DNA of 64,000 nt from Actinomycetota bacterium (GCA_035536315.1 DATLOJ010000157.1:617-64616); one strand, 5' to 3'; numbered from the stretch's first letter, positions 17,993-44,222 are shown. Translations and numbers: made by a program. The notes: generated by a model from the letters alone, not told the origin.

Positions 17993-19078
17993 CTACTGGA
18001 CCGGCGATCTCCGTGAATCCTGATTCAATCGCTGGAGAATTTGGGCTTCAGCGGCTAAGAACGCGCTGACCACATCAGGGTCGAACTGCGAACCCGAGTG
18101 ACGAGTGATCTCGTCCATTGCAACCTCCACCGGCAGTCCCTTGCGATATGGGCGGTCGCTTGTCATCGCATCGAACGCATCGGCTACTGCGAAGACGCGG
18201 GCTCCGACAGGGACGTCTTCCCCGGCGAGCCTGTTCGGGTAGCCTTCGCCGTCCCACCGCTCATGGTGAGCCATGACCACGTTGATCGCGTGCGGGTGCA
18301 GGAACCTGGCAGGTTCCAGAATCTTCGATCCCATGACCGGATGCTGCTTCATGATTGCCCACTCGCTCTCGTCAAGAGGCCCCGGCTTCATCAGGATCTG
18401 TTCTGGGATGCCGATCTTTCCAACATCGTGTAGCAGAAAGCCGAACACTATGGATTCCTCTTCCAGTAGCTCTGGAAGGAAGGATCTGGCGATAATCGTT
18501 GCGTAGTCTTGAACGCGTTTCGCATGGTTGCCCGTCTGGTCGTCCTTGGTCTCCAAGGCGGCGGCGAGCGACTGAACGGTGGATAGATAGCTTGTGTGCA
18601 GCTCTTCGGCCCTCTGTTCTGCATGCCGATAAAGTCGTCCCAGCTCCGTCATGACGGCCGACGTCAGGTCTCTGGATAGAACCGACTGCCCCTTTGCTGC
18701 CCATTGAAGTGCTTCGACGAAATCATCCGCGGCGATCCCCTTGAGCAGATATCCAAACGCGCCGGCAGCGATCATCTCGGTAATGAACTTTGGTTCTTCG
18801 TGGGTTGTCCAAGCGATGACTCGCATTTCCGGATAGCGGTCCGCAATAATCCTTGTGGCCATTATTCCGCTCAGGCCCGGCATGTCGACATCCATCAGTA
18901 CGAGGTTCGGCTGGCAAGTGCCGATCATCTCCAAAGCCTCCGGTCCTCCGGCGGCCTCGCCAACTAGCTCGAAGTCGGGGTGTGGTTCAAGGATCTCGCG
19001 CACAAGAACGCGGAACTGCGGGACATCGTCCACGACCAGCACTCGAACTTTGACAGGACTCTGTTCAGGCAAGACCAT
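17993..19078 (-). CDS. response regulator with receiver and HD-GYP phosphodiesterase domains (RpfG-like)
   Basis: REC domain (VLVVDD, phospho-acceptor context LVLMDVDMPG) followed by an HD-GYP domain (HDVGK...HHERWDGEGYP). Confidence 0.85.
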   Translation of the reverse strand: MVLPEQSPVKVRVLVVDDVPQFRVLVREILEPHPDFELVGEAAGGPEALEMIGTCQPNLVLMDVDMPGLSGIMATRIIADRYPEMRVIAWTTHEEPKFITEMIAAGAFGYLLKGIAADDFVEALQWAAKGQSVLSRDLTSAVMTELGRLYRHAEQRAEELHTSYLSTVQSLAAALETKDDQTGNHAKRVQDYATIIARSFLPELLEEESIVFGFLLHDVGKIGIPEQILMKPGPLDESEWAIMKQHPVMGSKILEPARFLHPHAINVVMAHHERWDGEGYPNRLAGEDVPVGARVFAVADAFDAMTSDRPYRKGLPVEVAMDEITRHSGSQFDPDVVSAFLAAEAQILQRLNQDSRRSPVQ

Positions 19079-30378: not shown

Positions 30379-31191
30379 GTGGGCGGCGAGAGCCAGGTGG
30401 CTGCGAGCCTTTCGCCGGTGATTCACAACGCCGCGTTCCGCGCTCTCGAGTTGAACTGGATTTACGTACCCTTCCCCGTGTTACCCGGGCAGGTCCTTTC
30501 TGCTATCGAGGGTCTCGCCCGTGCGGGGGTCCGGGGGCTCAACGTCACGACGCCGCACAAAACCCATGCGGCGGGGGCTGCGACGACGATGTCTGCGGAG
30601 GCCGCCCAGGCGAAGGCGGTCAACACCCTAGTCATGGACGGCGACTCGATCGGTGCTGACAACACGGACGGCCGCGGTCTCATTCAATTCATCGAAGGGG
30701 ACCTGGGTTGGAGCCCGCGCGACAAAAGTGTCCTGATCCTCGGAACCGGGGGAGCAGCGCGCTCTGCTGCGGTTTCGCTCGCGGGGGCCGGGACTTCTGG
30801 GGTTGCGCTGGTTTCGAGGACCAGCGTCGGAGCCCGGACGGTGACGGAGTCGCTCGATTTGCCGTCGGTCAAGGGTCAGACGGGAGTCTCGAGAGACGAC
30901 CTCGCGACTGCAGATTTGGTGATAAACGCGACTCCAGTGGGCGCCGGAGGCGAGTCACTCCACCTGGAGATGGCAGGTCTGAAGAAGGGGGCCGTGGTAG
31001 TTGACCTCGTCTACCAGCGGGCGGTGACCCCGCTTCTCGAAGAAGCACGCAGGCTGGGTTACGAGGCTCATAACGGGCTGGGAATGTTGCTCCATCAGGC
31101 CGCCCTCTCATTTGAAATATGGACCGCTGTCCGCCCTCCCCTGGAATTGATGTCGGCCGCGGCGGTTTCCCACCTGGCCAGGAGTGGTTGA
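30379..31191 (+). CDS. aroE: shikimate dehydrogenase
   Basis: SLSPVIHNAAF and a GTGGAARS NADP-binding motif. The true start is probably upstream of the first canonical GTG (see findings). Confidence 0.88.
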   Translation: MGGESQVAASLSPVIHNAAFRALELNWIYVPFPVLPGQVLSAIEGLARAGVRGLNVTTPHKTHAAGAATTMSAEAAQAKAVNTLVMDGDSIGADNTDGRGLIQFIEGDLGWSPRDKSVLILGTGGAARSAAVSLAGAGTSGVALVSRTSVGARTVTESLDLPSVKGQTGVSRDDLATADLVINATPVGAGGESLHLEMAGLKKGAVVVDLVYQRAVTPLLEEARRLGYEAHNGLGMLLHQAALSFEIWTAVRPPLELMSAAAVSHLARSG

Positions 31192-31328: not shown

Positions 31329-31865
31329 ATGTCGATAACAAGAGCCGACGGATTGGCGCTAACGCTCGAAGAGTTCCTGAGACAGTGCCCAGACGTGGAT
31401 GCCGCAGCCGTTATTAGCTCTGACGGCCTGCCAATGGCATCGGCCCTACCCAGCCACATCCATGAGGATCGCTTGGGGGCGATGGCCGCAGCCATGCTTT
31501 CCCTGGGCGACCGGGCTGCCGAAACTTTGGGCCGCGGGCGTCTGAAGCAAGTATTTGTCGAGGGTTCAAATGGGTACGTCTTCCTGATGGCGGCGGGGCC
31601 GGCGGTCTTGTGTGCAATCACTCAGAAGAAGGCCAAGATCGGTTTGGTGATTTACGAGATGCAAACGACGGCATCCGTAGTAGGCAACATCCTCATGGAA
31701 GGGGAGGTGCGTGCCGTGCAGACAAACGCCGCCCCCGTCTCGCCGGCGCCACAGCCCGCTGCGGTCGAGGCGTCCCCGGTCGTGCCCGAGCCCAGAGCGG
31801 AGGCTTCGTCGAAGCCGGCAGATCTGCCCGCCGGCGTCACCTGGGACGACTACCAGGAGAGTTGA
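31329..31865 (+). CDS. Roadblock/LC7 (MglB/CvnB-like) domain protein
   Basis: About 120-aa Roadblock/LC7 core (AAAVISSDGLPMAS....GAMAAAMLSLGDRAAE...GYVFLMAAGP) followed by a Pro/Ala-rich tail. AGGAGG ribosome-binding site 10 nt upstream. Confidence 0.75.
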   Translation: MSITRADGLALTLEEFLRQCPDVDAAAVISSDGLPMASALPSHIHEDRLGAMAAAMLSLGDRAAETLGRGRLKQVFVEGSNGYVFLMAAGPAVLCAITQKKAKIGLVIYEMQTTASVVGNILMEGEVRAVQTNAAPVSPAPQPAAVEASPVVPEPRAEASSKPADLPAGVTWDDYQES

Positions 31866-31925
31866 GGCCAACAAGTGGACCTTAAGCGAATTATGCGTCG
31901 ACCTACTTCTGCGGAGGCCCACTAG

Positions 31926-32858
31926 ATGACCGCGCTCTCAGGATCGCTCGACGTTTTTGCCCTCCCGGACGTCTTGCGTCTGGTGGCTCAAAACAGGGTG
32001 ACCGGCGCGCTTCACGTTAACCGGGATAGCGGCGACGGCGTAATCTATTTCACCAACGGAACCGTTCAATTTGCCGACTCATCCCTGACGCACGACTTGC
32101 TCGGCCAGCGGCTCGTCGGTGCAAAGGTTCTCTCACAGAATCAGCTTCTCAAGGTCCTCGACGAACAAAAGCGCAGCGGGGGAGCCTTGCACGAGCTTCT
32201 CATCGAGAAGAAGTTGCTGAACGACGAAACTCTGAACGCCCATCTCAGGGAGCAGGCCGAGGAGGCGATCTATTCCCTCCTGCAGTGGGACGTTGGTAGC
32301 TTCAACGTCGAGCCCGGAGAGGAGCTCGAGCAGGACATTGGAATGGCCGTTTCGGTGGACAACCTGCTTATGGAATCCTCGAGGAGGCTGGAAGAGTGGG
32401 AGGTCATTCGCCGAAAGATTCCAGCTGTGGAGGCTGTCGTCGTGATGGCCGCAGACCCCCCCGACGAGTCTTCCGACATCAACATCAAACCGGATGAGTG
32501 GAAGCTGCTCGTAATCGTCGACGGCTCACGCTCGGTCAGGGATATCTCGCTCGCAGCCGGCCGGTCCGAGTTCGACACGTGCAAGGTTCTGTACGGACTT
32601 GTGACCGCGGGTCTGGTCAAGGTCATCGGCGATTACGCCCCCGCTGAAGAGGAGCCGTCCAAAGAGGAGAAAGATCCGGCCCCCGTGAAGCCCGACGAAC
32701 GCCGTTCGGAACGGCGGGTAGCCGCCCCGAACGGGAAGCCAACGCGCGCGGCCGAGCCCGTACAGGAATCCGACGAGGGAGCCGAAGCAGCTCATGCGGA
32801 AGCATCAATTTCCAAGGAGGTACTGCAGCGCCTGATTGCAGGCGTGAGGGACCTGTAA
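31926..32858 (+). CDS. PATAN/DUF4388 domain protein
   Basis: N-terminal G.LDVFALPDVLRLVAQNRVTGALHV...GVIYFTNGTVQFAD and C-terminal DEWKLLVIVDGSRSVRDISLAAGRSEFDTCKVLYGLVTAGLV halves match the DUF4388/PATAN pattern. An acidic low-complexity tail follows. Confidence 0.7.
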   Translation: MTALSGSLDVFALPDVLRLVAQNRVTGALHVNRDSGDGVIYFTNGTVQFADSSLTHDLLGQRLVGAKVLSQNQLLKVLDEQKRSGGALHELLIEKKLLNDETLNAHLREQAEEAIYSLLQWDVGSFNVEPGEELEQDIGMAVSVDNLLMESSRRLEEWEVIRRKIPAVEAVVVMAADPPDESSDINIKPDEWKLLVIVDGSRSVRDISLAAGRSEFDTCKVLYGLVTAGLVKVIGDYAPAEEEPSKEEKDPAPVKPDERRSERRVAAPNGKPTRAAEPVQESDEGAEAAHAEASISKEVLQRLIAGVRDL

Positions 32859-32862
32859 GCCT

Positions 32863-33411
32863 TTGGCCACCGTCAAGGTGGTCGTTACCGGTCCGTTCGC
32901 AGCCGGGAAGACGACCTTCATTCGAACCGTATCCGAGATCGCGGTCATCTCTACCGAGCGCAATGTCACGGATCACAGCGCCGAGAAAAAGGGAAGAACC
33001 ACGGTGGCGATGGACTTCGGAAGAATCACTATCGATGAGTCGCTGGTCCTTTATCTATTCGGAACCCCCGGCCAGGAGAGGTTCGATTTTATGTGGGAGA
33101 TCTTGTCCGAGGGCATGCTTGGGTTCATCCTGCTGCTGGACCCGGTGGACAAGGAATCCTTTGAGGATGCGCGGAAAATATTGAACGCCTTTCTGGGGTA
33201 CGGGGATGTTCCTTTTGTCGTCGCCGTCAACAAGCATGACGACGACGAAGCTGGTGCGGCGATTGCCCGGGCCGAGTTGGCTCTTGCGGACTCAGTACCC
33301 ATCGTCCCGGTGGACGCGCGCGACCTCGAGAGCGTCAAAGGGGTCCTGCTCGAGCTGCTGTTGTTGGTTGTGAAGACAAGGGAAAATCAGCAGGTTCTGA
33401 GTCCCGGCTAA
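32863..33411 (+). CDS. small Ras-like GTPase, MglA/CvnD-like (ATP/GTP-binding protein family)
   Basis: G1 GPFAAGKTT, G3 LFGTPGQERF and G4 NKHD motifs. Strong similarity to the Streptomyces conservon CvnD core (TTVAMDFGRIT..LVLYLFGTPGQ.RF.FMW). TTG start. Confidence 0.8.
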   Translation: MATVKVVVTGPFAAGKTTFIRTVSEIAVISTERNVTDHSAEKKGRTTVAMDFGRITIDESLVLYLFGTPGQERFDFMWEILSEGMLGFILLLDPVDKESFEDARKILNAFLGYGDVPFVVAVNKHDDDEAGAAIARAELALADSVPIVPVDARDLESVKGVLLELLLLVVKTRENQQVLSPG

Positions 33412-33413
33412 AT

Positions 33414-33665
33414 ATGGGTTTCTTCAGCCGCCTCTTTCGAGGAAAGAAAAAGAACAGAGCCCCCGGCTGGAATTGGGCCCTGGGTTCGGGGGTTCACCTT
33501 GCTCCGCCTCCACCGCCACCCCTGAAAGCCGACGACAACGACACCGACTGGCCCGCAGGGCGGGTCGTTTTGGGGTTTGAGAACGGGACCCTTCATTCCC
33601 TCGAGGAAAGCAACAGGCTCGTTGCCGATTTTGTGAAGGCAGCAGATCGAATATTCAGCCCGTAA
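33414..33665 (+). CDS. hypothetical small protein (basic N-terminus, poly-Pro, acidic C-terminus)
   Basis: 83-aa ORF starting 3 nt after the GTPase stop (MGFFSRLFRGKKKNR...PPPPPP...). No recognisable family; ribosome-binding site is weak. Confidence 0.35.
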   Translation: MGFFSRLFRGKKKNRAPGWNWALGSGVHLAPPPPPPLKADDNDTDWPAGRVVLGFENGTLHSLEESNRLVADFVKAADRIFSP

Positions 33666-33722: not shown

Positions 33723-35405
33723 GTGAACGAACAAGCAAACCGAGGATTCGGCGACCTCCTTCTAGACGAGGGACTCATCTCGGGCGACCACCTTGGCGAG
33801 GCCGAAGAGGAGGCCAGGTCCACAGGCAAGTCCCTCGGCAGGGTTCTGATCGACAAGGGATTCATCACCGAGGCCCAGGTCTTTGCCGTTCTGGCGAGAG
33901 CCACAGGCTTTGAATTCGTTGAACTCGCGGAAATCACCATCGATCCGACCGCCACCACCTTGATTCCTGAGAGTCAGGCGCGGCGCTACAAGGCGCTTCC
34001 TATCGGCTTCGACAACGGCAAGCTCGTTGTGGCAATGGACGACCCCAACAACGTCTTTGCCATAGACGACATCCGCACGATGACCGGTAAAGAGATCAAG
34101 CCAGTAGTTGCCACGGGCCAGGACATCCTGGCGGCCATAGGGCGGATGCAGCGCCTGGACACATCTGTCGAAGCGATGGGCGATGGTGGCGGGGACTTTC
34201 TCCTGGACGATGAGGAGATCGGTGGGAGCGCAGAGGATGGGGGAGACGCACCGGTCGTCCGCCTGGTGAACCAGGTCATCACCCAGTCCGTAAATGACAG
34301 GGCTTCCGACATCCACTTCGAGCCGCAGGAGCGGGACCTGCGGGTGCGTCAAAGGATCGATGGAGTTCTCCACGAGCTCGGTCGCTTTCCGCGTAACATC
34401 CAGGCCGGGGTCGTCTCGCGACTCAAGATCATGGCCGACATCGACATCGCAGAGCGGCGGATCCCTCAGGACGGCCGCATCAGCCTGTCCGTCCAGGGAA
34501 AGTCGATCGACCTGCGAGTGGCAACGCTGCCGACTGTTTACGGAGAAAAAATCGTTCTCAGGATTCTGGATAAGTCGAGCGTTTTGCTGAAGCTGGAGGA
34601 CCTCGGGTTTTCGCAGCACAACTTCAGGCTCTACGAGGGCGCGTACACCAAGCCCTACGGAATGATCCTCGTCACAGGTCCAACTGGCTCCGGAAAATCC
34701 ACGACGCTTTACGCCACCCTCAACATCCTTAATCAGGAGGATAGGAACATCATCACGGTAGAAGACCCGGTTGAATACAGACTCGCCGGGATCAACCAGA
34801 TCCAGACGAACCCGAAGGCCGGCCTAACGTTCTCGTCTGCTCTGAGATCGATCTTGCGTGCGGACCCGGACACCGTCCTGATCGGTGAGATCAGGGACAA
34901 GGAGACGGCCCAGATTGCGGTCGAGGCCGCTCTTACCGGCCACCTCGTTCTTTCGACGCTGCACACCAACGATGCACCCGGCGCCGTCAGCCGTCTGATT
35001 GAAATGGGAATCGAGCCCTTTCTGGTTGCATCGGCTGTCGATGCCGTCCTTGCCCAAAGACTTGCCCGCCGGTTGTGTGAGAAATGTAAGGACGCATATA
35101 CGCCAACGCGTGAGGCTCTGAAGGAAAACAAATTCCATATTGGCGAAGACGAGGAGATTCCTACGCTGTTTCGTCCAAAAGGCTGTCCCAAGTGCAGCAA
35201 GACCGGGTACAGAGGCCGGATGGCGGTCCACGAGGTAATGCCTATGTCGGAAGACCTCGAAATGCTAACGGTGGAAAGAAAGTCGAGTGACGAGATCCGC
35301 CGGCTTGCTATTCAGCAGGGGATGATCGATCTGCGCGGAGACGGTATGCACAAAGTCCGTCTGGGACATACCTCTCTGGAGGAAATTCAAAGAGTCATCA
35401 TCTGA
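33723..35405 (+). CDS. pilB: type IV pilus assembly ATPase PilB (GspE family)
   Basis: GSPII_E N domain, Walker A GPTGSGKST, Asp/His boxes, and tetracysteine Zn motif (CEKC...CPKC). Confidence 0.93.
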   Translation: MNEQANRGFGDLLLDEGLISGDHLGEAEEEARSTGKSLGRVLIDKGFITEAQVFAVLARATGFEFVELAEITIDPTATTLIPESQARRYKALPIGFDNGKLVVAMDDPNNVFAIDDIRTMTGKEIKPVVATGQDILAAIGRMQRLDTSVEAMGDGGGDFLLDDEEIGGSAEDGGDAPVVRLVNQVITQSVNDRASDIHFEPQERDLRVRQRIDGVLHELGRFPRNIQAGVVSRLKIMADIDIAERRIPQDGRISLSVQGKSIDLRVATLPTVYGEKIVLRILDKSSVLLKLEDLGFSQHNFRLYEGAYTKPYGMILVTGPTGSGKSTTLYATLNILNQEDRNIITVEDPVEYRLAGINQIQTNPKAGLTFSSALRSILRADPDTVLIGEIRDKETAQIAVEAALTGHLVLSTLHTNDAPGAVSRLIEMGIEPFLVASAVDAVLAQRLARRLCEKCKDAYTPTREALKENKFHIGEDEEIPTLFRPKGCPKCSKTGYRGRMAVHEVMPMSEDLEMLTVERKSSDEIRRLAIQQGMIDLRGDGMHKVRLGHTSLEEIQRVII

Positions 35406-35434
35406 TTGTTCCCAACGGCCCCCCACCCCGTACA

Positions 35435-36553
35435 ATGCCCGCTCTGGAACACAACATGAGCACCGAACCCGCCCAGCCCGCCCACGTCCCCGACGCGCGC
35501 ATGATTTCTCTTCTCGAGGAGGTGGTCAGCCGCAAGGGGAGTGACCTGCACCTGACGCCTGGAATTCCTCCGGTGGTTCGCGTCCATGGGCGTCTTGTCC
35601 GACTTCAGGAGAGTGGACCCCTTGAGACCACGGAGCTGAGGTCGATGCTTTATTCAATTCTCAGCCAGCGCCAGATCGACACATTCGAAGAGGAGCTGGA
35701 GCTGGACTTTTCATTCTCGCTCCCAGGGAAAGCCAGGTTCAGGGCCAACGTCTTTTACCAGCGCGACTCGGTTGGGGGGGCCTTCAGGCTCATCCCTGCC
35801 GAGATCAAAAGCATTCAGGAGCTAGGGCTTCCGTCCCAAATCGCCGACTTTACGGAGATGAACCGAGGTCTTGTCTTAGTGACTGGGCCGACGGGCCAGG
35901 GAAAAACGACAACCCTTGCAACCATGATCGGCATGATCAATCAAAACAGAGATACGCACATTGTCACGATCGAGGACCCCATCGAGTTTGTGCACGACCA
36001 CAAGATGTCGGTCGTGAATCAAAGAGAGGTAGGCACCGACACCCATTCGTTTTCAGAGGCGTTGCGACGTGCCCTGAGACAGGACCCCGACGTGATCCTG
36101 GTGGGAGAGATGCGAGATCTCGAAACCATCTCAACTGCACTGACCGCGGCGGAGACCGGCCACCTGGTGTTTGCGACCCTGCACACCCAGGACGCGGCAC
36201 AGACCGTCGACCGAGTTATTGACGTCTTTCCGCCCCAACAACAGGAGCAGGTGCGAGTGCAGCTGGCCGGAAGCCTCCAGGGAGTAGTCGTGCAGTACCT
36301 GCTTCCATTGACGCAAGGAGGGGGCCGCGTGCCGGCGGTGGAGATTATGTTTGCTACCCCCGCCATCCGTAACCTCATCAGGGAAGGCAAGAGTCACCAG
36401 ATCAACTCCGCGCTCCAGGCAGGGGGGCGCCATGGGATGCAGACGATGGATCAGGCGCTGGCCGATCTGTACCGGAGCCGCAAGATCTCGTTCGAGACGG
36501 CCATGGAACGGGCCTCGGATTCTGAAACCCTGAAGCAGCTTCTGGGCAAGTAA
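35435..36553 (+). CDS. pilT: twitching-motility retraction ATPase PilT
   Basis: GPTGQGKTTT Walker A and the PilT-specific AIRNLIREGK motif; 372 aa. Confidence 0.93.
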   Translation: MPALEHNMSTEPAQPAHVPDARMISLLEEVVSRKGSDLHLTPGIPPVVRVHGRLVRLQESGPLETTELRSMLYSILSQRQIDTFEEELELDFSFSLPGKARFRANVFYQRDSVGGAFRLIPAEIKSIQELGLPSQIADFTEMNRGLVLVTGPTGQGKTTTLATMIGMINQNRDTHIVTIEDPIEFVHDHKMSVVNQREVGTDTHSFSEALRRALRQDPDVILVGEMRDLETISTALTAAETGHLVFATLHTQDAAQTVDRVIDVFPPQQQEQVRVQLAGSLQGVVVQYLLPLTQGGGRVPAVEIMFATPAIRNLIREGKSHQINSALQAGGRHGMQTMDQALADLYRSRKISFETAMERASDSETLKQLLGK

Positions 36554-36561
36554 TTCCCGCC

Positions 36562-37353
36562 GTGCCCCTCGAGTCGGTGGCGATCGCAGCAGCGACTTTC
36601 ATCTGCGGCGCTGTATTCGGAAGCTTTGCCAATGTCGTAATACACAGGCTCCCTCGAGGGGAACCGCTGGCCAGGCCTCCGTCAAGATGTCCCGGCTGCG
36701 GCAAGAATCTCAAGTGGTGGGAAAACGTTCCGCTCGCTTCTTACCTCGCGTTACGAGGCCGCTGCTCCGCTTGCGGCGTGCGGATCTCGCTGCGCTATCC
36801 GCTCGTTGAGGCCCTGTGCGGTGGTCTCTGGGCTTTGACCGCGATCACGATCGGCCTGACCCCATACCTCGCGGCCCTTCTGGCCATGGCCACTACGCTC
36901 ACAATCCTTACCTTCATCGATCTCGAGCATCGACGACTGCCAAACAAGGTTCTCGGCCCCGCATCGATAATCGCCGTTGCCTGCCTCCTCGTTGCCTCAC
37001 TTGTCACTGGGGAGCCTTCCAGGCTTCTTGATGCGGCTATTGGGGCCGCGGCGTACGGGGGGCCGTTGTTTTTACTCGCTCTGGCCGTTCCGAGGGGAAT
37101 GGGGGGAGGGGACGTAAAGCTTGGCGCTTACATTGGGCTGAATTTAGCCTGGGGCTCGCTGGGAAACGTGGCCGTTGCGGCCTTTGTGGCCGTCCTTGCT
37201 GGGGGAGTTGTCTCCTTGATCCTTATGGCGTCCGGGACCCGGGGCCGCAAGGACGCGATCCCGTTCGGGCCCTTCATGGCGCTTGGCGCCGTCGTCGGCG
37301 CCCTTTGGGGCCCACGTCTGCTGGACATCTGGCTGGCGACCGCCGGCTTCTAA
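36562..37353 (+). CDS. pilD: prepilin peptidase (A24 family) PilD
   Basis: N-terminal CPGCG...CSACG Zn-binding pair, several transmembrane segments, and catalytic Asp context (GGGDVKL). Confidence 0.9.
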   Translation: MPLESVAIAAATFICGAVFGSFANVVIHRLPRGEPLARPPSRCPGCGKNLKWWENVPLASYLALRGRCSACGVRISLRYPLVEALCGGLWALTAITIGLTPYLAALLAMATTLTILTFIDLEHRRLPNKVLGPASIIAVACLLVASLVTGEPSRLLDAAIGAAAYGGPLFLLALAVPRGMGGGDVKLGAYIGLNLAWGSLGNVAVAAFVAVLAGGVVSLILMASGTRGRKDAIPFGPFMALGAVVGALWGPRLLDIWLATAGF

Positions 37354-37474
37354 AACACTCCGCGAAATCCCCGTTACTAATGTTGACTTCTGTTAACTTT
37401 GGGCCAGTATTGGCACATTAGGTACGTGAAGCAACGGGAGCGCACTACTGAGACCCCAGGTGCATGTGGGGTAG

Positions 37475-37503
37475 TTGACTGCCTGTGTGACTCTTGTTAG
37501 CTT
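37475..37503 (+). promoter_or_regulatory. sigma-70-like promoter candidate for the HTH–pilMNO transcript
   Basis: TTGACT, then a 17-nt spacer, then TAGCTT. A second TTGACT lies at 37383. An ACCCCA/TGGGGT hairpin (37453–37472) sits just upstream. Confidence 0.4.
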
Positions 37504-37565
37504 CCGTAAACCCCTGTGGCGCATCGTCACCGGGCGGAGCTGAGAACGGGAGCGCGAAGTTGAGC

Positions 37566-37775
37566 ATGGAGGCTGGGATTCGTCCCGTCCGGGTCAATGG
37601 TGACGTTCTGCTGACTGTGGCGGAAGTGGCCTCACTGATGCGCGTCTCGAACATGACGGTTTACAGGCTCATCAAGTCCGAGCAACTAAAGGCCTTGAAG
37701 GTCGGCAAGAACTACCGAATCAGGGAGTCGGACATCGAGACATATCTCAACGACCGCTCAGTGGGGGGACCGTAA
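37566..37775 (+). CDS. small HTH DNA-binding protein (excisionase/MerR-like, BldC-like architecture)
   Basis: LLTVAEVASLMRVSNMTVYRLIKSEQLKALKVGKNYRIRESDIETYL matches an HTH_17/Xis-type domain. The stop overlaps the pilM start as TAATG. The upstream portion of the longer ORF (from 37494) has no ribosome-binding site. Confidence 0.65.
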   Translation: MEAGIRPVRVNGDVLLTVAEVASLMRVSNMTVYRLIKSEQLKALKVGKNYRIRESDIETYLNDRSVGGP

Positions 37776-38872
37776 TGGCTCGGGCCAAGGACTCAGTTGG
37801 ACTTGATATCGGAACGAGCGGCGTAAGGGCTGCTCACCTCTCGTTCGGCCGGGTTCCTTACTCCCTCCAAAATTTCGGCCAGGTTGCCCTGCCTCCGGGG
37901 GCCGTCCGAGAAGGTGAGATCGCGGACTCGGCGACCGTGGCGCAGGCGCTCAGCGAGCTTTGGAAGCGGGGAGCTATCAAGAAGAAGACGGTCAGCCTTG
38001 GAATATCAAACGGCCGGGTCGTGGCTCGGCCAATTCAGTTTCCCGCAATGACCGAGGACGAACTTCGAAACGCGCTCCAGTTTCAGGCTCAGGAGTACAT
38101 CCCATTTCCAGTTGAAGACGCGGTGGTCGACTTTCAAATCGTCGATGAGTTCGTCGGCGACAACAACGAGAGAGTAATGCAGATATATCTGGTGGCCGGC
38201 CACAAGGAAATGATCAGCACGTTCGTCGAGACGATCGAGCGAGCGGGGCTGAGGCTCGATTCAATTGACTTCATTCCTATGGGGCTCATTCGATCCCTGG
38301 GAGAAACGGCCGATTCCATGGAGCGAAGGGCCGGCGTCGGAGAGGCCATCATCGACATCGGTGCGGGAGTCACGAACGTCGTCGTTCACGAGGGGGGAAT
38401 CCCTCGCTTTGCGCGCGTGCTGGCCACCGGAGGACACGCTCTGACCGACGCACTCTCTGCCGGAATGGGAATTCCCTTTGAGGAGGCGGAGGCAATCAAG
38501 CAGCGCCTCGGCCTTCGCCCACCTGGTCCCGCTGCAGAAGTCCCGGGGGCCCAGGGAGACGATCTTGCAATCCAAATCCTCGAAAATCGGGCGGGAGCGT
38601 TCGTGGATGAAGTTCGCGGCTCCATCGATTACTTTCTGGCCCAGCCCGAGTCCATCCAGATCTCGAGACTCGTGCTCAGCGGAGGGGGATCGAAGCTAGT
38701 CAACTTGGGCGCCCGTCTGTCCGCAGGACTGCGAGGCCTCCCGGTAGAGCAGGGGAGAGCGCTTCAGCGCATCACCGTCCAGAAGTTTGGTTTGACCGAT
38801 GAACAAATTGGTGAGGCCGAGCCCCTTATGGGAGCTTCCGTTGGCGTTGCCCTGGGGGCCGCATGGCAGTAA
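37775..38872 (+). CDS. pilM: type IV pilus assembly protein PilM (actin-like ATPase)
   Basis: VGLDIGTSGVRAA N-terminus and the FtsA/actin fold pattern; 365 aa. Confidence 0.9.
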   Translation: MARAKDSVGLDIGTSGVRAAHLSFGRVPYSLQNFGQVALPPGAVREGEIADSATVAQALSELWKRGAIKKKTVSLGISNGRVVARPIQFPAMTEDELRNALQFQAQEYIPFPVEDAVVDFQIVDEFVGDNNERVMQIYLVAGHKEMISTFVETIERAGLRLDSIDFIPMGLIRSLGETADSMERRAGVGEAIIDIGAGVTNVVVHEGGIPRFARVLATGGHALTDALSAGMGIPFEEAEAIKQRLGLRPPGPAAEVPGAQGDDLAIQILENRAGAFVDEVRGSIDYFLAQPESIQISRLVLSGGGSKLVNLGARLSAGLRGLPVEQGRALQRITVQKFGLTDEQIGEAEPLMGASVGVALGAAWQ

Positions 38873-39510
38873 GACGAATAAACCTCCTTCCCCCAGAGAT
38901 TGCAGTCAGAAGGCGCGTCCAGCGCCAGACGTTCGGACTGGGCGCGGGTTTCCTCGTCCTGCTTTTGATCCTTGGAGCCATCTGGGTCTTCAGGCAAGGC
39001 CAGCTTCACGACCAGGAGGATCGCAAGGCAGTCGCGGAAGCAGAGGCGAGGTCATTGCAAACCAAAGTAGACGCCCTTGCCGAGTTCAGCGAGCTAGACA
39101 AAACAGTGAAGGACAAGAAGGCAACACTCGCTGCTGCCATGGCCGGCGACGTTGCTTGGTCGCGTTTGATGGTCGAGCTCTCGATGATCATTCCCGGCGA
39201 CAGCTGGCTTCTGTCGATGGCCGGGACGTCAGCACCTCCGACTGCCCCCGCTGCGGGAGCGGCCCCAGCGCCGGCAGGAGCTCAAGCCGCATCGCTTGGA
39301 ACTCTCAACTTCACAGCAGTCACGTTCGACTTTCCGGGCGTTGCCAAATGGATCACGAGGCTCCAGGAGCTCCCCAGTCTTCAGACGATCTGGGTTCCCT
39401 CTGCATCGACGGCCCTCATCGGTGAGCGCGACGTCGTCAACTATTCGAGTACCGCTGAACTGTCGAGCGACTCGGCCAGCGGGAGATACCAGCCGGCGGC
39501 CGCGCGATGA
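38863..39510 (+). CDS. pilN: type IV pilus assembly protein PilN
   Basis: INLLP motif, a single transmembrane helix and a coiled-coil region. Confidence 0.85.
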   Translation: MAVRRINLLPPEIAVRRRVQRQTFGLGAGFLVLLLILGAIWVFRQGQLHDQEDRKAVAEAEARSLQTKVDALAEFSELDKTVKDKKATLAAAMAGDVAWSRLMVELSMIIPGDSWLLSMAGTSAPPTAPAAGAAPAPAGAQAASLGTLNFTAVTFDFPGVAKWITRLQELPSLQTIWVPSASTALIGERDVVNYSSTAELSSDSASGRYQPAAAR

Positions 39511-40094
39511 GACGAAATTTCTTGATATTCGTGCTGGTGGTGATAGTCACCGCGGTTCTGTACTTCTTCTTCGTGTTCAGCCCGCAGAGCGAGCGGATCA
39601 AAGAGGCGTCGGAATCTGCGGACGCTGCTGAGACCAAGGTGAGCAGGCTCACGCTCGAGCTAAGGCGGCTACAGGCGCTGCAGAAGGATGCGCCCCGCCT
39701 TCGTCAGGAGGCGCAGGTCCTGGATAGCGCGATGCCGAACGATCCACAGCTTGCTCAGTTTCTCTTGATGGTTCAGGAGCAGGCCGATGCTTCGGGCATC
39801 GATTGGACTTCGGTCAACCCCGCGCCCCCCATCGCCGGGCCGCAGCCGAACGTGAGCGAGATCACGATCGCGCTGAACGTCAGTGGAGGGTACTTCCAGG
39901 TCCAGGACTTCCTCGTAAGGCTCGAGACCCTTTCACGCGCTCTGAAGATCGACACCCTGAGTCTGACCCCGCTTCCTGCGACGGAAGGTGCCTCAGCTGG
40001 AGGTTCGCCGGAGCTGATTACCAGCCTCACCATGAAGATGTTCGTCTCGTCGATTTCAGCCGCGCCGGCAACAACGGCCGCAGCGGGAACTTAG
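39507..40094 (+). CDS. pilO: type IV pilus assembly protein PilO
   Basis: Transmembrane helix, coiled-coil and PilO C-domain; ATGA overlap with pilN. Confidence 0.8.
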   Translation: MRRNFLIFVLVVIVTAVLYFFFVFSPQSERIKEASESADAAETKVSRLTLELRRLQALQKDAPRLRQEAQVLDSAMPNDPQLAQFLLMVQEQADASGIDWTSVNPAPPIAGPQPNVSEITIALNVSGGYFQVQDFLVRLETLSRALKIDTLSLTPLPATEGASAGGSPELITSLTMKMFVSSISAAPATTAAAGT

Positions 40095-40108
40095 ACAAGG
40101 AGCTTTTG

Positions 40109-40726
40109 GTGGCAACCGAAGAAGCAGTAGTCGAAGAGAGACAAGGCCTGAACCCGGCGGTAGTTGCCGCGCTCGTCGTGGGCGGGCTTTTGCTTCTCGG
40201 ACTCTTCTTCTGGTTTGTCGCCAGACCATTCCTGTTTCCCCAGCCTGCTGAAGAGCCACGCGTGCCTGCCCCGAAGAGGCAGGCCGTGAACCCCAGTCCC
40301 AGCCCGGCAGCGGCCGCGGAGCAGCCTCCAGCAGAGACCTTCGAGGTCTTTGAATCGAAGGATCCATTCCGTCCCCTTGTCGTCGTGCCCGTAGCTGCGG
40401 GGGCCGGAAGCGGTTCTACGACATCAGGTGCAACCGGTGGAGGTACAACTGGGACCACAACCGGTGGGAACACGCCCGCCGCAGGGAACGGTGCTGCGGG
40501 GGGAGCCGCGCCAACGGGCGGACAGCGGGTCAGTCTGATCGATGTGTTCACCGACGACGGCACTAAGAAAGCTCAGATCAAGGTCGGGAGCACGGTCTAC
40601 ACGGTCGCGGTCGGCGAGACGTTCGCCCAGAACTACAAGCTCGTTTCCGTATCGGGGGACTGCGCGACGCTGCTGCACGGAGACAACAAGTTCACCCTCT
40701 GCGAGGGCGAAGAGGTAATTAAGTAG
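40109..40726 (+). CDS. membrane-anchored hypothetical protein, possible PilP-like T4P accessory component
   Basis: GTG start 6 nt after an AAGGAG ribosome-binding site. It has one transmembrane helix, a Pro/Ala-rich linker, a Gly/Thr-rich low-complexity linker, and a C-terminal beta-rich domain of about 70 aa. It lies directly after pilO. Confidence 0.5.
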   Translation: MATEEAVVEERQGLNPAVVAALVVGGLLLLGLFFWFVARPFLFPQPAEEPRVPAPKRQAVNPSPSPAAAAEQPPAETFEVFESKDPFRPLVVVPVAAGAGSGSTTSGATGGGTTGTTTGGNTPAAGNGAAGGAAPTGGQRVSLIDVFTDDGTKKAQIKVGSTVYTVAVGETFAQNYKLVSVSGDCATLLHGDNKFTLCEGEEVIK

Positions 40727-41044
40727 GGGCTTCGCTTACTCAGCCATGACGGCGGCCCGTCGGCCCTCCCTAGCTCAATTTCGCCTGCCTGCCCAAGGGA
40801 AATTGGGTCGGGCGGCGAAGCCCAGCCCGGCCTGGCGACACCCTGGCGGTCTTGCGCTCGGGCCGCCGATCTCTACAACGCTTAGGTACGCGCAAAGTCG
40901 CCTGTCCGGTCTGACTCCGCCGCCCTACGTTCCTCGCCATGAGCGGCTCCACAAGCGCTACAGAACAAGTCACCGCCGCCCTGCCTGAGTTCTCTCGGCT
41001 TGGCGCTGGAAGTGGGTTGGGGGCGGGGGATTTACCATGCGGGG

Positions 41045-42193
41045 GTGAGGTTTCTTACTGCTGGGGAGTCGCATGGGCCTGCGCTTTCTTTGATTGTTGA
41101 GGGGCTTCCTTCGGGATTGGCGCTTTCTAGGGAGTTCATAGGGCGGGAGCTTGCTCGTCGGCGGCTCGGGTTTGGCAGGGGGCCTCGCATGAAGATCGAG
41201 GCCGACGAGCTCGAGATTCTGAGTGGGGTGCGGTTCGGCAGAACTCTGGGGAGCCCGGTGTCCATGTTGATTCGCAATTCAGAGTGGGCAAAATGGGAAC
41301 GGGTCATGTCCGCGGAAGGTAAGCCTGCTGGAAACCCGCTCACCGAGCCGCGGCCTGGACACGCCGACCTTGCAGGGATGTTGAAGTACGACTTCGACGA
41401 CGCACGCAACGTGCTCGAACGGGCAAGTGCTCGAGAAACCGCGGCCAGAACTGCAGCGGGGGCTACGGCCAAGACACTGCTTGGGGAGCTCGGGGTTCAG
41501 GTTGTCTCTCACGTGGTGGCCATCGGCCCGGTCGCGTCGGACTCGGATCGCAGACCCTCCCCGGACGATTTGGATGCCGTCGACTCGAGCCCTGTCCGGT
41601 GTTTCGATCCAGCGGTTGAGGGGGCGATGATCGCCGAGATCGAAAAGTGCTTCGAGGAGGGCGATTCGCTTGGAGGAGTGTTCGAGGTGATCGCTTACGG
41701 CGTCCCTTCCGGCCTCGGTTCATACGTTCACTACGACCGCAAACTCGATGGCGTGCTCGGGGGAGCCTTCATGTCCATTCCAGGGATCAAGGCGGTCGCG
41801 ATTGGTGACGGCCTGAAGGTCGCCAGACAGCGCGGAACTCAAGCGCATGACGAGATCTATCTCGAGGACGGCCGGTTCGTTAGGAAGACCGATCATGCCG
41901 GGGGTCTCGAAGGAGGCGTGACCATCGGCGGATCGGTTCGCGTGCGGGCTTCGATGAAGCCCCTGTCCACGTTGAAGCAACCTCTGAAGACCGTAGACAC
42001 TCGGACCGGAAAACCGGCCGAGGCTTTCAGGGAGAGGACCGACGTCTGCTCTGTGCCAGCCGCCGCGGTCGTAGGGGAAGCGATGATGGCATGGGTCCTG
42101 GCTGATGCAGCAGCCGACAAGTTCGGCGGGGACACGGTCGGGGACATGAAGGCGGCGCTTTCGACCTTTTTGCGGCGCACCCATCGCGGGTGA
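41045..42193 (+). CDS. aroC: chorismate synthase
   Basis: RFLTAGESHG N-terminus with a GTG start; conserved along the full length. Confidence 0.93.
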   Translation: MRFLTAGESHGPALSLIVEGLPSGLALSREFIGRELARRRLGFGRGPRMKIEADELEILSGVRFGRTLGSPVSMLIRNSEWAKWERVMSAEGKPAGNPLTEPRPGHADLAGMLKYDFDDARNVLERASARETAARTAAGATAKTLLGELGVQVVSHVVAIGPVASDSDRRPSPDDLDAVDSSPVRCFDPAVEGAMIAEIEKCFEEGDSLGGVFEVIAYGVPSGLGSYVHYDRKLDGVLGGAFMSIPGIKAVAIGDGLKVARQRGTQAHDEIYLEDGRFVRKTDHAGGLEGGVTIGGSVRVRASMKPLSTLKQPLKTVDTRTGKPAEAFRERTDVCSVPAAAVVGEAMMAWVLADAAADKFGGDTVGDMKAALSTFLRRTHRG

Positions 42194-42708
42194 AGATAGC
42201 TCCGGCCGGTACCGTCGCTCTCATCGGGCCCATGGGTGCGGGCAAGAGCGAAGTTGGGGCCCTGCTCGCCCGAATGAGCCATAGACCGTTCATCGATACC
42301 GATCGTGCCGTTGAAGCGGCGGCTGGGATGTCGATCGCACAGATATTCCAGAGCAGGGGGGAGAAAGAATTCAGGCGAATCGAAGAAGAGGTCGTCAAAG
42401 AGTCTGCTTTGCGAAAGGGGGCGGTCATAGCCTGTGGAGGCGGCGCCGTTGAATCAGCTTCGGCGATGTCCGCCCTCGCCAGGAGCGGAGCGATCGTTTA
42501 CCTGCGTATAGATGCAACCAGCGCTGCGGCTCGCCTTGGCTCCGGGGAAGGACGACCCTTGCTCGGAGGTGGCGAAGTCGAACAAAAGCTCACGAAGCTC
42601 ATTCAGGAAAGGTCGGGGCGTTATGAGGAGCTTGCCGATCTGACGGTGGATGCGAACGGCCCACCACAACAGGTCGCCGAGTCGATCACCGAAGGGCTCG
42701 CCCTATGA
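42190..42708 (+). CDS. aroK: shikimate kinase
   Basis: GPMGAGKS P-loop; 172 aa. Confidence 0.92.
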   Translation: MKIAPAGTVALIGPMGAGKSEVGALLARMSHRPFIDTDRAVEAAAGMSIAQIFQSRGEKEFRRIEEEVVKESALRKGAVIACGGGAVESASAMSALARSGAIVYLRIDATSAAARLGSGEGRPLLGGGEVEQKLTKLIQERSGRYEELADLTVDANGPPQQVAESITEGLAL

Positions 42709-43772
42709 AGGCTCATCGAGTTGAGCTGGGCGCCGACTCATATCAGGTCGTGGTTGGTACCGACATCCTTGACGCAATTCCGGAGATTCTTCCTTCCGGC
42801 CCTATAAACAGGATCGCGATTGTCGAGGACGCCGGAGTACCGGAGCCGGCAAGAGACGCGCTCGAGAACGTGATGGGCGAGATCGCCGAGGTGCGCAGGA
42901 TTGCCGTGCCGGGTGGAGAGCAAGTCAAGTCGCTGGCCTCGGTTGAGAAGGTTCTCGAGATGCTCGCCCAATGGCCTCTCAGAAGGTCGGATCTGGTTGT
43001 TGGTTTTGGGGGAGGGGCCACTACCGACCTTGCGGGATTCGTTGCTTCCGTTTACCAGCGGGGAGTGAAGGTCTGCCACGTGCCGACCACTCTTCTGGGA
43101 CAGGTGGATGCAGCGATCGGCGGCAAGACAGCAGTGAACCTTGCGGGCAAGAATATGACAGGTACTTTTCACCAGCCGTGCCTGGTGATTTGCGACGTGG
43201 CAACAACTCGTTCGCTTTCTGAAGACCACCTGCGCTCGGGTCTTGCTGAGGTGATCAAGTACGGGCTGTGTTTCGACTCCGCTTTGCTCAGTCTTCTCCG
43301 CGACGACGCTTTGAACGCGTTCCAAAAGGATCCGGAGGCGATGGTGTCCGCTTGCGTTCGTATAAAGGCCGAGATAGTGGCGATCGACACGTTCGATAAA
43401 TCTGTTCGCCGGCATCTCAACTACGGACACACCCTTGGTCATGCACTGGAACTGGCAACCGGTTTCGAGGAGCTAATGCACGGTGAGGCCATCTCGATAG
43501 GAATGACGTTTGCCGCGGAGATGTCCCTGGGCATGGGTCTGTTGAGCGACGAGGAAGTGAATCTTCACCGGCAGATCATTTCGGGAGCAGGGCTTCCGGT
43601 TTCGACGAACGTTACCCCCGAAACGGTCATACCCCTTCTCACCAGGGACAAGAAATTTCGTGACGACCAGGCGTGGGTGTTGCTGGAAGGTTTGCAGCGT
43701 CCTTTCGTCAAGATAGGCGTACCCCAGGACGCTGTGCTTGCGGCTTATGCGAAGGTCTCGCATGATGGGTGA
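42705..43772 (+). CDS. aroB: 3-dehydroquinate synthase
   Basis: GGG.TDLAGF, NAD and metal-binding motifs. Confidence 0.94.
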   Translation: MKAHRVELGADSYQVVVGTDILDAIPEILPSGPINRIAIVEDAGVPEPARDALENVMGEIAEVRRIAVPGGEQVKSLASVEKVLEMLAQWPLRRSDLVVGFGGGATTDLAGFVASVYQRGVKVCHVPTTLLGQVDAAIGGKTAVNLAGKNMTGTFHQPCLVICDVATTRSLSEDHLRSGLAEVIKYGLCFDSALLSLLRDDALNAFQKDPEAMVSACVRIKAEIVAIDTFDKSVRRHLNYGHTLGHALELATGFEELMHGEAISIGMTFAAEMSLGMGLLSDEEVNLHRQIISGAGLPVSTNVTPETVIPLLTRDKKFRDDQAWVLLEGLQRPFVKIGVPQDAVLAAYAKVSHDG

Positions 43773-43778
43773 CCTGCA

Positions 43779-44222
43779 ATGACAAAGATATTTGTGATCA
43801 ACGGACCCAACCTCAACCTTCTAGGCGATCGGGAGCCGGAGGTTTATGGAACCACGACCCTCAAGGAAATCGAGCAGCTGTGCCGGGACGTTGCCAGGGA
43901 GGCGGGGGCCGAGGTCGACTTCAGGCAAACCAACGACGAAGGAACCTTCATCGACTGGCTTCACGAAGCGCGGCAGTCTGCGGATGCCGTTGTACTTAAC
44001 CCCGCCGCCTTTACGCATCACTCGTATGCTGTTGCGGAAGCAGTTTCGGCCCTCGACGTTCCAGTGGTCGAGGTTCACTTGTCCAACATTTACTCGCGTG
44101 AGGAGTGGCGAAGAAGGTCCGTCGTCTCTCCCGTAGCAACGGCGGTTGTGGCCGGCCTTGGTGCACGCGGGTATACGGTGGCCGTCGCGGCCGCGTGTGA
44201 GCTGGCTGAAGGAAAGGGTTAA
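43779..44222 (+). CDS. aroQ: type II 3-dehydroquinate dehydratase
   Basis: INGPNLNLLG N-terminus; 147 aa. Confidence 0.94.
   Translation: MTKIFVINGPNLNLLGDREPEVYGTTTLKEIEQLCRDVAREAGAEVDFRQTNDEGTFIDWLHEARQSADAVVLNPAAFTHHSYAVAEAVSALDVPVVEVHLSNIYSREEWRRRSVVSPVATAVVAGLGARGYTVAVAAACELAEGKG

Follow-up and report, generated by a model that had tools for sequence, protein, structure and literature searches.

A type IVa pilus gene cluster lacking platform and pilin genes, between aroE and aroC of an Actinomycetota bacterium

The DNA investigated here is a stretch of 64,000 nucleotides from an Actinomycetota bacterium (GCA_035536315.1, DATLOJ010000157.1:617-64616), hereafter the window, and the system in question is a block of type IVa pilus (T4aP) genes lying in it between the shikimate genes aroE and aroC-aroK-aroB-aroQ. 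A preliminary description had reported pilB, pilT, pilD, pilM, pilN, pilO and a PilP-like gene in this interval, and we found all of them, co-oriented on the + strand, at the coordinates given there (33723-40726). They are supported by family or fold matches, pilN being recognized by position, topology and motif, and it is indeed machinery of the T4aP type that stands beside the shikimate genes. The pil unit begins at 31329 and not at 33723, since four co-oriented, tightly spaced genes (31329-33665) precede pilB; these four, and a small helix-turn-helix (HTH) gene of the HTH_17 family (37575-37775), had been passed over. We suggest that the locus is probably an ancestral Actinomycetota T4aP cluster that has kept its customary aroE-aroC location and was derived by the removal of one cassette of genes, with the remainder functional and the fibre and platform encoded elsewhere. 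The block and its flanks are composed as follows, with expectation values (E) or bit scores of the matches.

30379-31191, + strand: aroE (shikimate dehydrogenase), the 5' flank; Shikimate_dh_N (1.5e-20) and SDH_C.
33723-35405, + strand: PilB extension ATPase; T2SSE (7e-141) and an N-terminal MshEN domain.
35435-36553, + strand: PilT retraction ATPase; TIGR01420 at 487.7 bits (cutoff 319.1), with the AIRNLIREGK motif.
36554-36561, no strand: pilT/pilD junction of 8 bp, read from the window sequence; the cassette site of the relatives.
36562-37353, + strand: PilD prepilin peptidase; A24_N_bact (5e-33) and Peptidase_A24 (4e-14).
37575-37775, + strand: small DNA-binding protein of the HTH_17/excisionase family; PF12728 (2.1e-15) and TIGR01764 (1.1e-16).
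37775-38872, + strand: PilM; PF11104 (2.6e-40) and TIGR01175 at 196.7 bits (cutoff 133).
38863-39510, + strand: gene in the PilN position; placed by position, one transmembrane segment and an N-terminal INLLP motif.
39507-40094, + strand: PilO; PF04350 (1.2e-10).
40109-40726, + strand: PilP-fold protein, with a GTG start behind an AAGGAG site; placed by an AlphaFold2 (AF2) model.
41000-44222, + strand: aroC-aroK-aroB-aroQ, the 3' flank; family matches, the true aroC start being probably later than 41000.

The NCBIfam model that fits PilB best is the type IV-A PilB, whose score of 646 bits falls slightly short of the equivalog cutoff (675.65). The translation of PilB keeps the Walker A, Asp box, Walker B, His box and tetracysteine motifs. 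This protein corresponds to HVE77154.1, and its nearest relatives are only about 75% identical. PilD has the N-terminal Cys-rich domain with CxxC...CxxC and both catalytic Asp motifs (DLEHRRLPN and GGGDVKL). The gene in the PilN position reaches no family at threshold (PF05137, E = 0.11) and is 54-61% identical to the gene in the same position of the relatives. The HTH_17 gene has an uncertain start, its open reading frame (ORF) running from 37494, and its stop overlaps the start codon of pilM at 37775; it is kept between pilD and pilM in complete and cassette-less clusters alike. The HTH_17 protein shows weak similarity to BldC and MamR.

It had been claimed that no ORF of the window carries a class III signal, with pilA therefore absent, and that PilC and a secretin are missing as well, and all of this stands. 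A six-frame search of the 64 kb window with the class III signal pattern gave no match inside a real ORF. In tblastn searches of the window with proteins of relatives (PilC, Wzy_C, two pilins and three minor pilins), nothing better than E = 0.08 was found; with the PilC of the related locus L003 as query against the same 64 kb, the best E was 4.7. No secretin gene is found among the genes of the window or of the pil cluster, and the rest of the window consists of housekeeping genes. The source is a metagenome-assembled genome (MAG), from which a pilC-pilin segment might have been dropped by an assembly or binning artefact, but we consider this hardly conceivable. The identical pilT-pilD-HTH-pilM order is found again in L001, a Logan assembly made independently for this organism (run SRR8544467), so that the gap between pilT and pilD is no artefact of assembly, and four other assemblies from different projects have the same layout.

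Related loci were investigated in two scans, one of species-representative genomes (selected via PilC) and one of Joint Genome Institute (JGI) metagenomes (selected via PilT), with the best 80 loci retained from each. Half of the scanned loci (80/160) were thus picked through PilC, while the PilT-selected scan gave about 70 informative loci. In 151 of the 153 informative related loci, pilC comes after pilT, with pilins, a gene with the Wzy_C domain and pilD next in order. All 80 loci kept in the PilC-selected scan are ordinary pilT-pilC clusters; in L058 and L072, PilC is at the contig edge with no recognised neighbours. The loci L003, L006 and L007 hold complete clusters in which the 12 orthologues and their order are those of the window, at 50-78% identity. 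In these loci pilT and pilD are separated by pilC, by N_methyl pilins (from one to several) that bear the canonical signal KGFTLIELMVV, and by the Wzy_C gene, which lies beside the pilins on the opposite strand (L003, 16276-17607, - strand; L006, 12606-14534, - strand; L007, 2638-4275, - strand). In L006, minor pilins are added to this segment. The Wzy_C gene is of the O-antigen-ligase-like kind, and its place next to the pilins presumably reflects O-glycosylation of pilins as in the PglL/TfpO type; like the pilins, it is absent from the window. Judged by gene content and order, the window thus appears as a reduced derivative of the complete cluster, the direction being that of reduction and not the elaboration of a PilD-only locus, which reverses the earlier view of an elaborated ancestral locus.

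The pil genes had also been described as inserted into the shikimate operon. However, the aroE-pil-aroC arrangement is widespread in Actinomycetota: alaS, ruvX, mltG or aroE is found 5' of pilB in 70 of the 82 loci with informative upstream sequence, the record titles of the scanned loci naming Acidimicrobiia, Actinomycetes and Gaiellaceae. Escherichia coli K-12 has hofMNOPQ-aroK-aroB, and since the flanks are shared by so many loci and a similar order exists in E. coli, we consider the pil-aro neighbourhood old and widespread. The composition of the window (about 59% guanine plus cytosine, GC) shows no break, and the pil block matches its flanks in GC content and skew. A recent horizontal insertion of the pil block into the shikimate operon, in favour of which there is nothing beyond the gene order itself, is therefore extremely improbable. 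The complete cluster of L003 (1-21680) is preceded by pdxS-pdxT-yebC and not by aroE, so the whole pil block can move within the lineage. The pil cluster also carries insertion hot spots. A toxin-antitoxin-like pair (90 and 126 aa, without Pfam match and named by reading) lies between pilC and the pilins in L003 (14182-14831). Between the PilP-like gene and aroC, L007 (8554-10328) contains an AbiEii gene, recognized by Pfam, with a likely AbiEi partner, and the same place in L170 (15725-16453) holds a 242-aa membrane protein.

The layout of the window is repeated in three cassette-less loci (L005, L169 and L171), and in these as in the window the pilT/pilD junction measures about 8-14 bp. A further locus, L170 (10001-16453; GCA_050996495.1), contains pilB-pilD-pilM-N-O-PilP-like and lacks pilT, the PATAN/GTPase module, pilC and pilins. 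The cassette-less form is a lineage feature. In a neighbour-joining (NJ) tree of five proteins, the cassette-less loci and the pilC-positive L003 and L010 form one group with 100% bootstrap, and in the PilB NJ tree the cassette-less loci form one clade. From these trees, a single loss of the cassette in an ancestor would be the simplest account, and repeated loss would also be possible.

The ratio of nonsynonymous to synonymous substitution rates (dN/dS) was estimated between the cassette-less L005 and L169, a pair with dS of 0.7-1.5. For the motors and the peptidase it is 0.067 (PilB), 0.057 (PilT) and 0.108 (PilD), and for the alignment complex 0.083 (PilM), 0.094 (PilN), 0.082 (PilO) and 0.082 (PilP-like), with 0.127 for PATAN. 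The flanking genes give 0.079 (aroC), 0.20 (aroK) and 0.15 (aroB), so that the remaining pil genes (0.06-0.11) are as low as aroC. Across deep cassette-less pairs, the pil proteins are better conserved than those of aroB, aroK and aroE; PilB, for instance, has 72-73% identity against 42-47% for aroB. Because of the low dN/dS in the cassette-less relatives and of the catalytic motifs intact in the window, we consider that the remaining pil genes are functional and in use. These data bear on the possibility of a decaying remnant, in which the deletion inactivated the system and the genes are drifting to a PilD-only state. Such is, we assume, the content of the aroE-aroC interval in Corynebacteriales (mycobacteria and corynebacteria), where the place is the same and a prepilin peptidase gene is also found, whereas the window keeps the motors and the alignment complex. 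A reduction series can indeed be drawn from the complete cluster to the cassette-less one (the window) and then to one also without pilT (L170), and the PilD-only state of mycobacteria would presumably complete it. Nevertheless, all window ORFs are intact with their catalytic motifs, and neither the low dN/dS nor the conservation across the deep pairs is what drifting genes would show; we regard decay as very unlikely.

We return to the reading of a functional cluster derived by cassette removal. The segment removed from between pilT and pilD would have comprised the pilC platform gene, the major and minor pilins and the Wzy_C/PglL-type gene of pilin glycosylation. What remains are the PilB and PilT motors, PilD, the PilM-PilN-PilO alignment complex with a membrane-anchored PilP-fold partner, and the HTH regulator, together with an upstream control module in which a Roadblock protein and a small GTPase are joined by a conserved small protein and by a PATAN protein that has a motif for cyclic di-GMP (c-di-GMP). 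The minimal set for T4aP assembly includes PilD, pilin, PilF/B, PilG/C and PilM, N, O and P (PMC10191384); six of these eight are present in the window, and the two missing are exactly cassette genes. As the strong purifying selection indicates that the retained set is functional, the platform and the pilins are better explained as encoded elsewhere. Most likely, the retained machine still assembles and retracts a pilus, for which the platform protein and the prepilins would come from another locus. A split locus, such as is found in the many bacteria whose pil loci are scattered, is the ordinary explanation and much the most likely one.

Some observations weigh against this reading. No pilC or pilin of the source organism was seen in the sequence covered, which is the 64 kb window. 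Among the scanned related loci there is no orphan pilC locus, every PilC found adjoining pilT. The best 120 PilC homologues (at least 65% identity) include none whose accession lies in the range of a cassette-less NCBI genome (near HVE77154, MCA1838833, MFN2609650, MGI8426943, MGI9194218, HVF12132, MEO7803151, MEO7817809 and HLF69991); a positive control by accession neighbours worked (PilB MGH2706195.1 and PilC MGH2706197.1), and the evidence is weak, being taken from the best 120 matches only. The dN/dS values come from relatives, and comparisons with the lineage of the window are saturated at synonymous sites. The four pilT-bearing cassette-less loci group together with a bootstrap of 54% in the five-protein tree, so that their monophyly is weakly supported, and the support falls to 7% (20/300) when L170 is included. 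Finally, the regulatory roles discussed below are inferred from family analogies (MglA/MglB, PATAN-PilB and MshEN) only.

Part of these observations would suit a lineage without any PilC or T4a pilins, where the retained set serves a foreign partner (e.g. a Tad platform with Flp pilins) or has a role that involves no pilus. Each of the 151 loci with a PilC has it adjoining pilT, with no relocated copy, the PilC of the cassette-less genomes is not among the best 120 homologues, and L170 is further reduced, having lost pilT and the regulators, while strong purifying selection persists. However, a platform protein belongs to all type IV filament machines that have been described (PMC10191384), and the conservation of the N-terminal domain and catalytic motifs of PilD points to T4a prepilins as substrates. 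The negative evidence is also weak, with the best 80 loci considered per scan, a PilC list restricted to at least 65% identity, and genomes that are MAGs. We consider this alternative unlikely. It is similarly doubtful that PilB, PilT, PilM, PilN, PilO and the PilP-fold protein are under strong selection in a genome with no dedicated PilC or T4a pilins at all; if true, they would borrow the platform and pilins of another filament system or have a function needing no pilus.

The gene following pilO had been called PilP-like, which holds for the fold and fails for the sequence family. The window protein has no match in Pfam, including PF04351, and a sequence-profile search of the PDB gave no match either. 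Of 66 members of its family, 2 match PF04351 (E = 0.23) and 6 match T2SSB (4e-4). The AF2 model (66 homologues) predicts a transmembrane helix at residues 16-42, a disordered linker rich in Pro, Ala, Gly and Thr, and a C-terminal beta domain modelled with a predicted local distance difference test score (pLDDT) of about 98. The 12 best Foldseek matches of this domain in the PDB are all PilP, GspC-HR or GspB, with probability 1.0, target-normalised template-modelling (TM) scores of 0.47-0.77 and root-mean-square deviations of 2.1-3.8 Å, at E values of only 8e-3 to 0.1. By its predicted structure, then, the last pil gene is a PilP by fold and not by sequence family. The likeness to the beta domain of PilP, GspC-HR and GspB extends to the place after pilO, a DPF motif before the domain and a membrane anchor; in contrast to PilP, the anchor is, in the model, a transmembrane helix and not a lipoprotein signal, and the cluster has no secretin partner. 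The family counts 912 representative homologues, of which every member with a source name is a "hypothetical protein", and among the 120 homologues listed only 2 have a precomputed Pfam domain (T2SSB). Its members include proteins with 84-94% identity to that of the window (P0417 and P0418). A review expected PilP to be absent from monoderms and called this "logical" (PMC6916266).

Upstream of pilB, the unit is composed of the following four genes.

31329-31865, + strand: Roadblock/LC7 protein (MglB/CvnB-like); PF03259 (2.8e-18).
31926-32858, + strand: PATAN (DUF4388/PatA_N) protein; PF14332 (4.9e-30).
32863-33411, + strand: small Ras-superfamily GTPase (MglA/CvnD-like); ATP_bind_1 (1.6e-18) and Ras (1.8e-8).
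33414-33665, + strand: conserved small protein; no Pfam match, same-position homologues in L171 (E = 3.4e-9) and L003 (E = 4e-6).

The Roadblock protein includes among its PDB relatives Robl_LC7 proteins and CvnB5, and orthologues are found 5' of pilB in L003, L006 and L171. A PATAN gene stands in the aroE-pilB interval of at least 28 of 66 loci, and the complete Roadblock-PATAN-GTPase triple in a few clusters only. Embedded at residues 59-110 of the window PATAN protein is an MshE-type c-di-GMP motif, borderline with 37.7 bits against the NCBIfam cutoff of 38, which five orthologues exceed (46.5-53.4 bits in L003, L005, L006, L169 and L171). PilB has a tandem 24-residue motif of the same MshE type, with 51.7 bits for the same cutoff of 38. 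The small_GTP model gives 42.1 bits on the GTPase (cutoff 42.5). The small protein before pilB is also present at L171 9602-9997, L006 6606-7055 and L003 9777-9977, with the N-terminal motif FSRxFR...PGWNW, the C-terminal motif GKVVLxF...FVKAADRMMRP and a middle part of variable length.

In Synechocystis, PATAN regulators bind the motor PilB of type IV pili (10.1101/2021.06.11.447907); genes for MglA/MglB are known to occur next to those for PATAN proteins, and in Myxococcus the pilus motors are positioned by MglA and SofG (PMC4316618). By analogy, the activity or placement of the machine could be controlled by the GTPase switch and by the binding of c-di-GMP to both PilB and the PATAN protein. 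The window resembles the MglA/MglB switch, the actinobacterial conservons (CvnB/CvnD) and the PATAN regulators of PilB (PMC4316618; 10.1101/2021.06.11.447907) in combining Roadblock, Ras-like GTPase and PATAN proteins beside T4P motor genes, and its Robl-X-GTPase order is that of cvnB-cvnC-cvnD in these conservons. In contrast to conservons and PATAN regulators, it has neither the CvnA kinase nor DUF742, and its PATAN protein is without a receiver domain but contains the MshE-type c-di-GMP motif. The GTPase aligns over its full length with the MglA of Thermus thermophilus at E = 2.8e-4, while Rab and Arf proteins score higher, so that its place in the MglA family is uncertain. At 17993-19078 on the - strand, 15 kb from the proteins of the pil cluster with c-di-GMP motifs, the window encodes a response regulator whose translated sequence contains HHERWDGEGYP, a motif indicating an HD-GYP domain; it is likely a c-di-GMP phosphodiesterase.

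As for the neighbouring genes, the window contains before the pil block, on the + strand, thrS, a phosphatidylinositol mannoside (PIM) acyltransferase gene, a pimA-like glycosyltransferase gene, pdxS, yebC, ruvCAB, yajC and secDF, and then, still 5' of it, relA, hisS, aspS, rarA, alaS, ruvX, mltG and aroE. This upstream gene order is a typical actinobacterial housekeeping run. On the 3' side, aroC, aroK, aroB and aroQ are followed by pepP, efp, nusB, pyr genes and gmk, and further on by rpoZ, coaBC, metK, priA, def and fmt. The spacer from the stop of the PilP-like gene to the aroC ORF (40727-40999) has 273 bp, or more if aroC starts later, and is unusually long in comparison with the approximately 35-45 bp of L005, L169 and L171. 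No Rfam family reaches its gathering score across the 64 kb, this spacer included, and no tRNA, riboswitch or leader was found.

The experimentally studied actinobacterial case of type IV pili is reportedly that of the zoospores of Actinoplanes missouriensis (Kimura et al. 2019, cited in PMC11522434). A review describes the actinobacterial pili investigated to date as Tad-type, and the PilM-PilN-PilO alignment complex as specific to T4aP (PMC6916266). The window shares with the complete Actinomycetota T4aP clusters (L003, L006, L007 and L009-L168) the orthologues, their order and the aroE/aroC flanks, and both have a PilP-fold protein as the last gene and the PATAN gene 5' of pilB; it differs in having no pilC, pilins or Wzy_C gene. 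A retraction ATPase in a Gram-positive-type envelope had been considered notable in itself, but pilT was already reported in Gram-positive pil operons in 2011 (PMC3244431), and retraction powered by PilT has been reviewed for monoderms (PMC6916266). The T4aP of monoderm Firmicutes (Streptococcus sanguinis, Clostridium perfringens and C. difficile; PMC6916266, PMC3244431) have, like the window, clustered genes for PilB, PilT, PilD and PilM/N/O without a secretin. However, their clusters include pilC and the pilins, and PilP is reported absent, the window being the reverse on both points. In Proteobacteria, the alignment genes of pilMNOPQ-aroK-aroB end, as in the window, in a PilP-type gene directly 5' of shikimate genes, while pilB, pilC, pilD and pilA are at other loci. 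In contrast to this arrangement, the window has no secretin, places aroC before aroK and includes pilB, pilT and pilD in the block.

The system is thus of a known kind, and what is new in it is a variant of the gene order. The link between pilus and shikimate genes is an old, phylum-wide neighbourhood and not a local insertion, and a reduction series from a complete T4aP cluster to what we take to be the lone prepilin peptidase of mycobacteria and corynebacteria is plausible. The PilP-fold protein, so predicted from its model, would be a regular member of T4aP clusters, hitherto without annotation, in a phylum that is commonly regarded as monoderm, and the PATAN protein with its c-di-GMP motif is a conserved neighbour of PilB; both may be of interest to pilus specialists. 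In this uncultured lineage, the platform and pilin genes are uncoupled from an otherwise intact motor that is under selection. A split locus would be an ordinary explanation of this state, while a machine without a platform, if true, would be remarkable.

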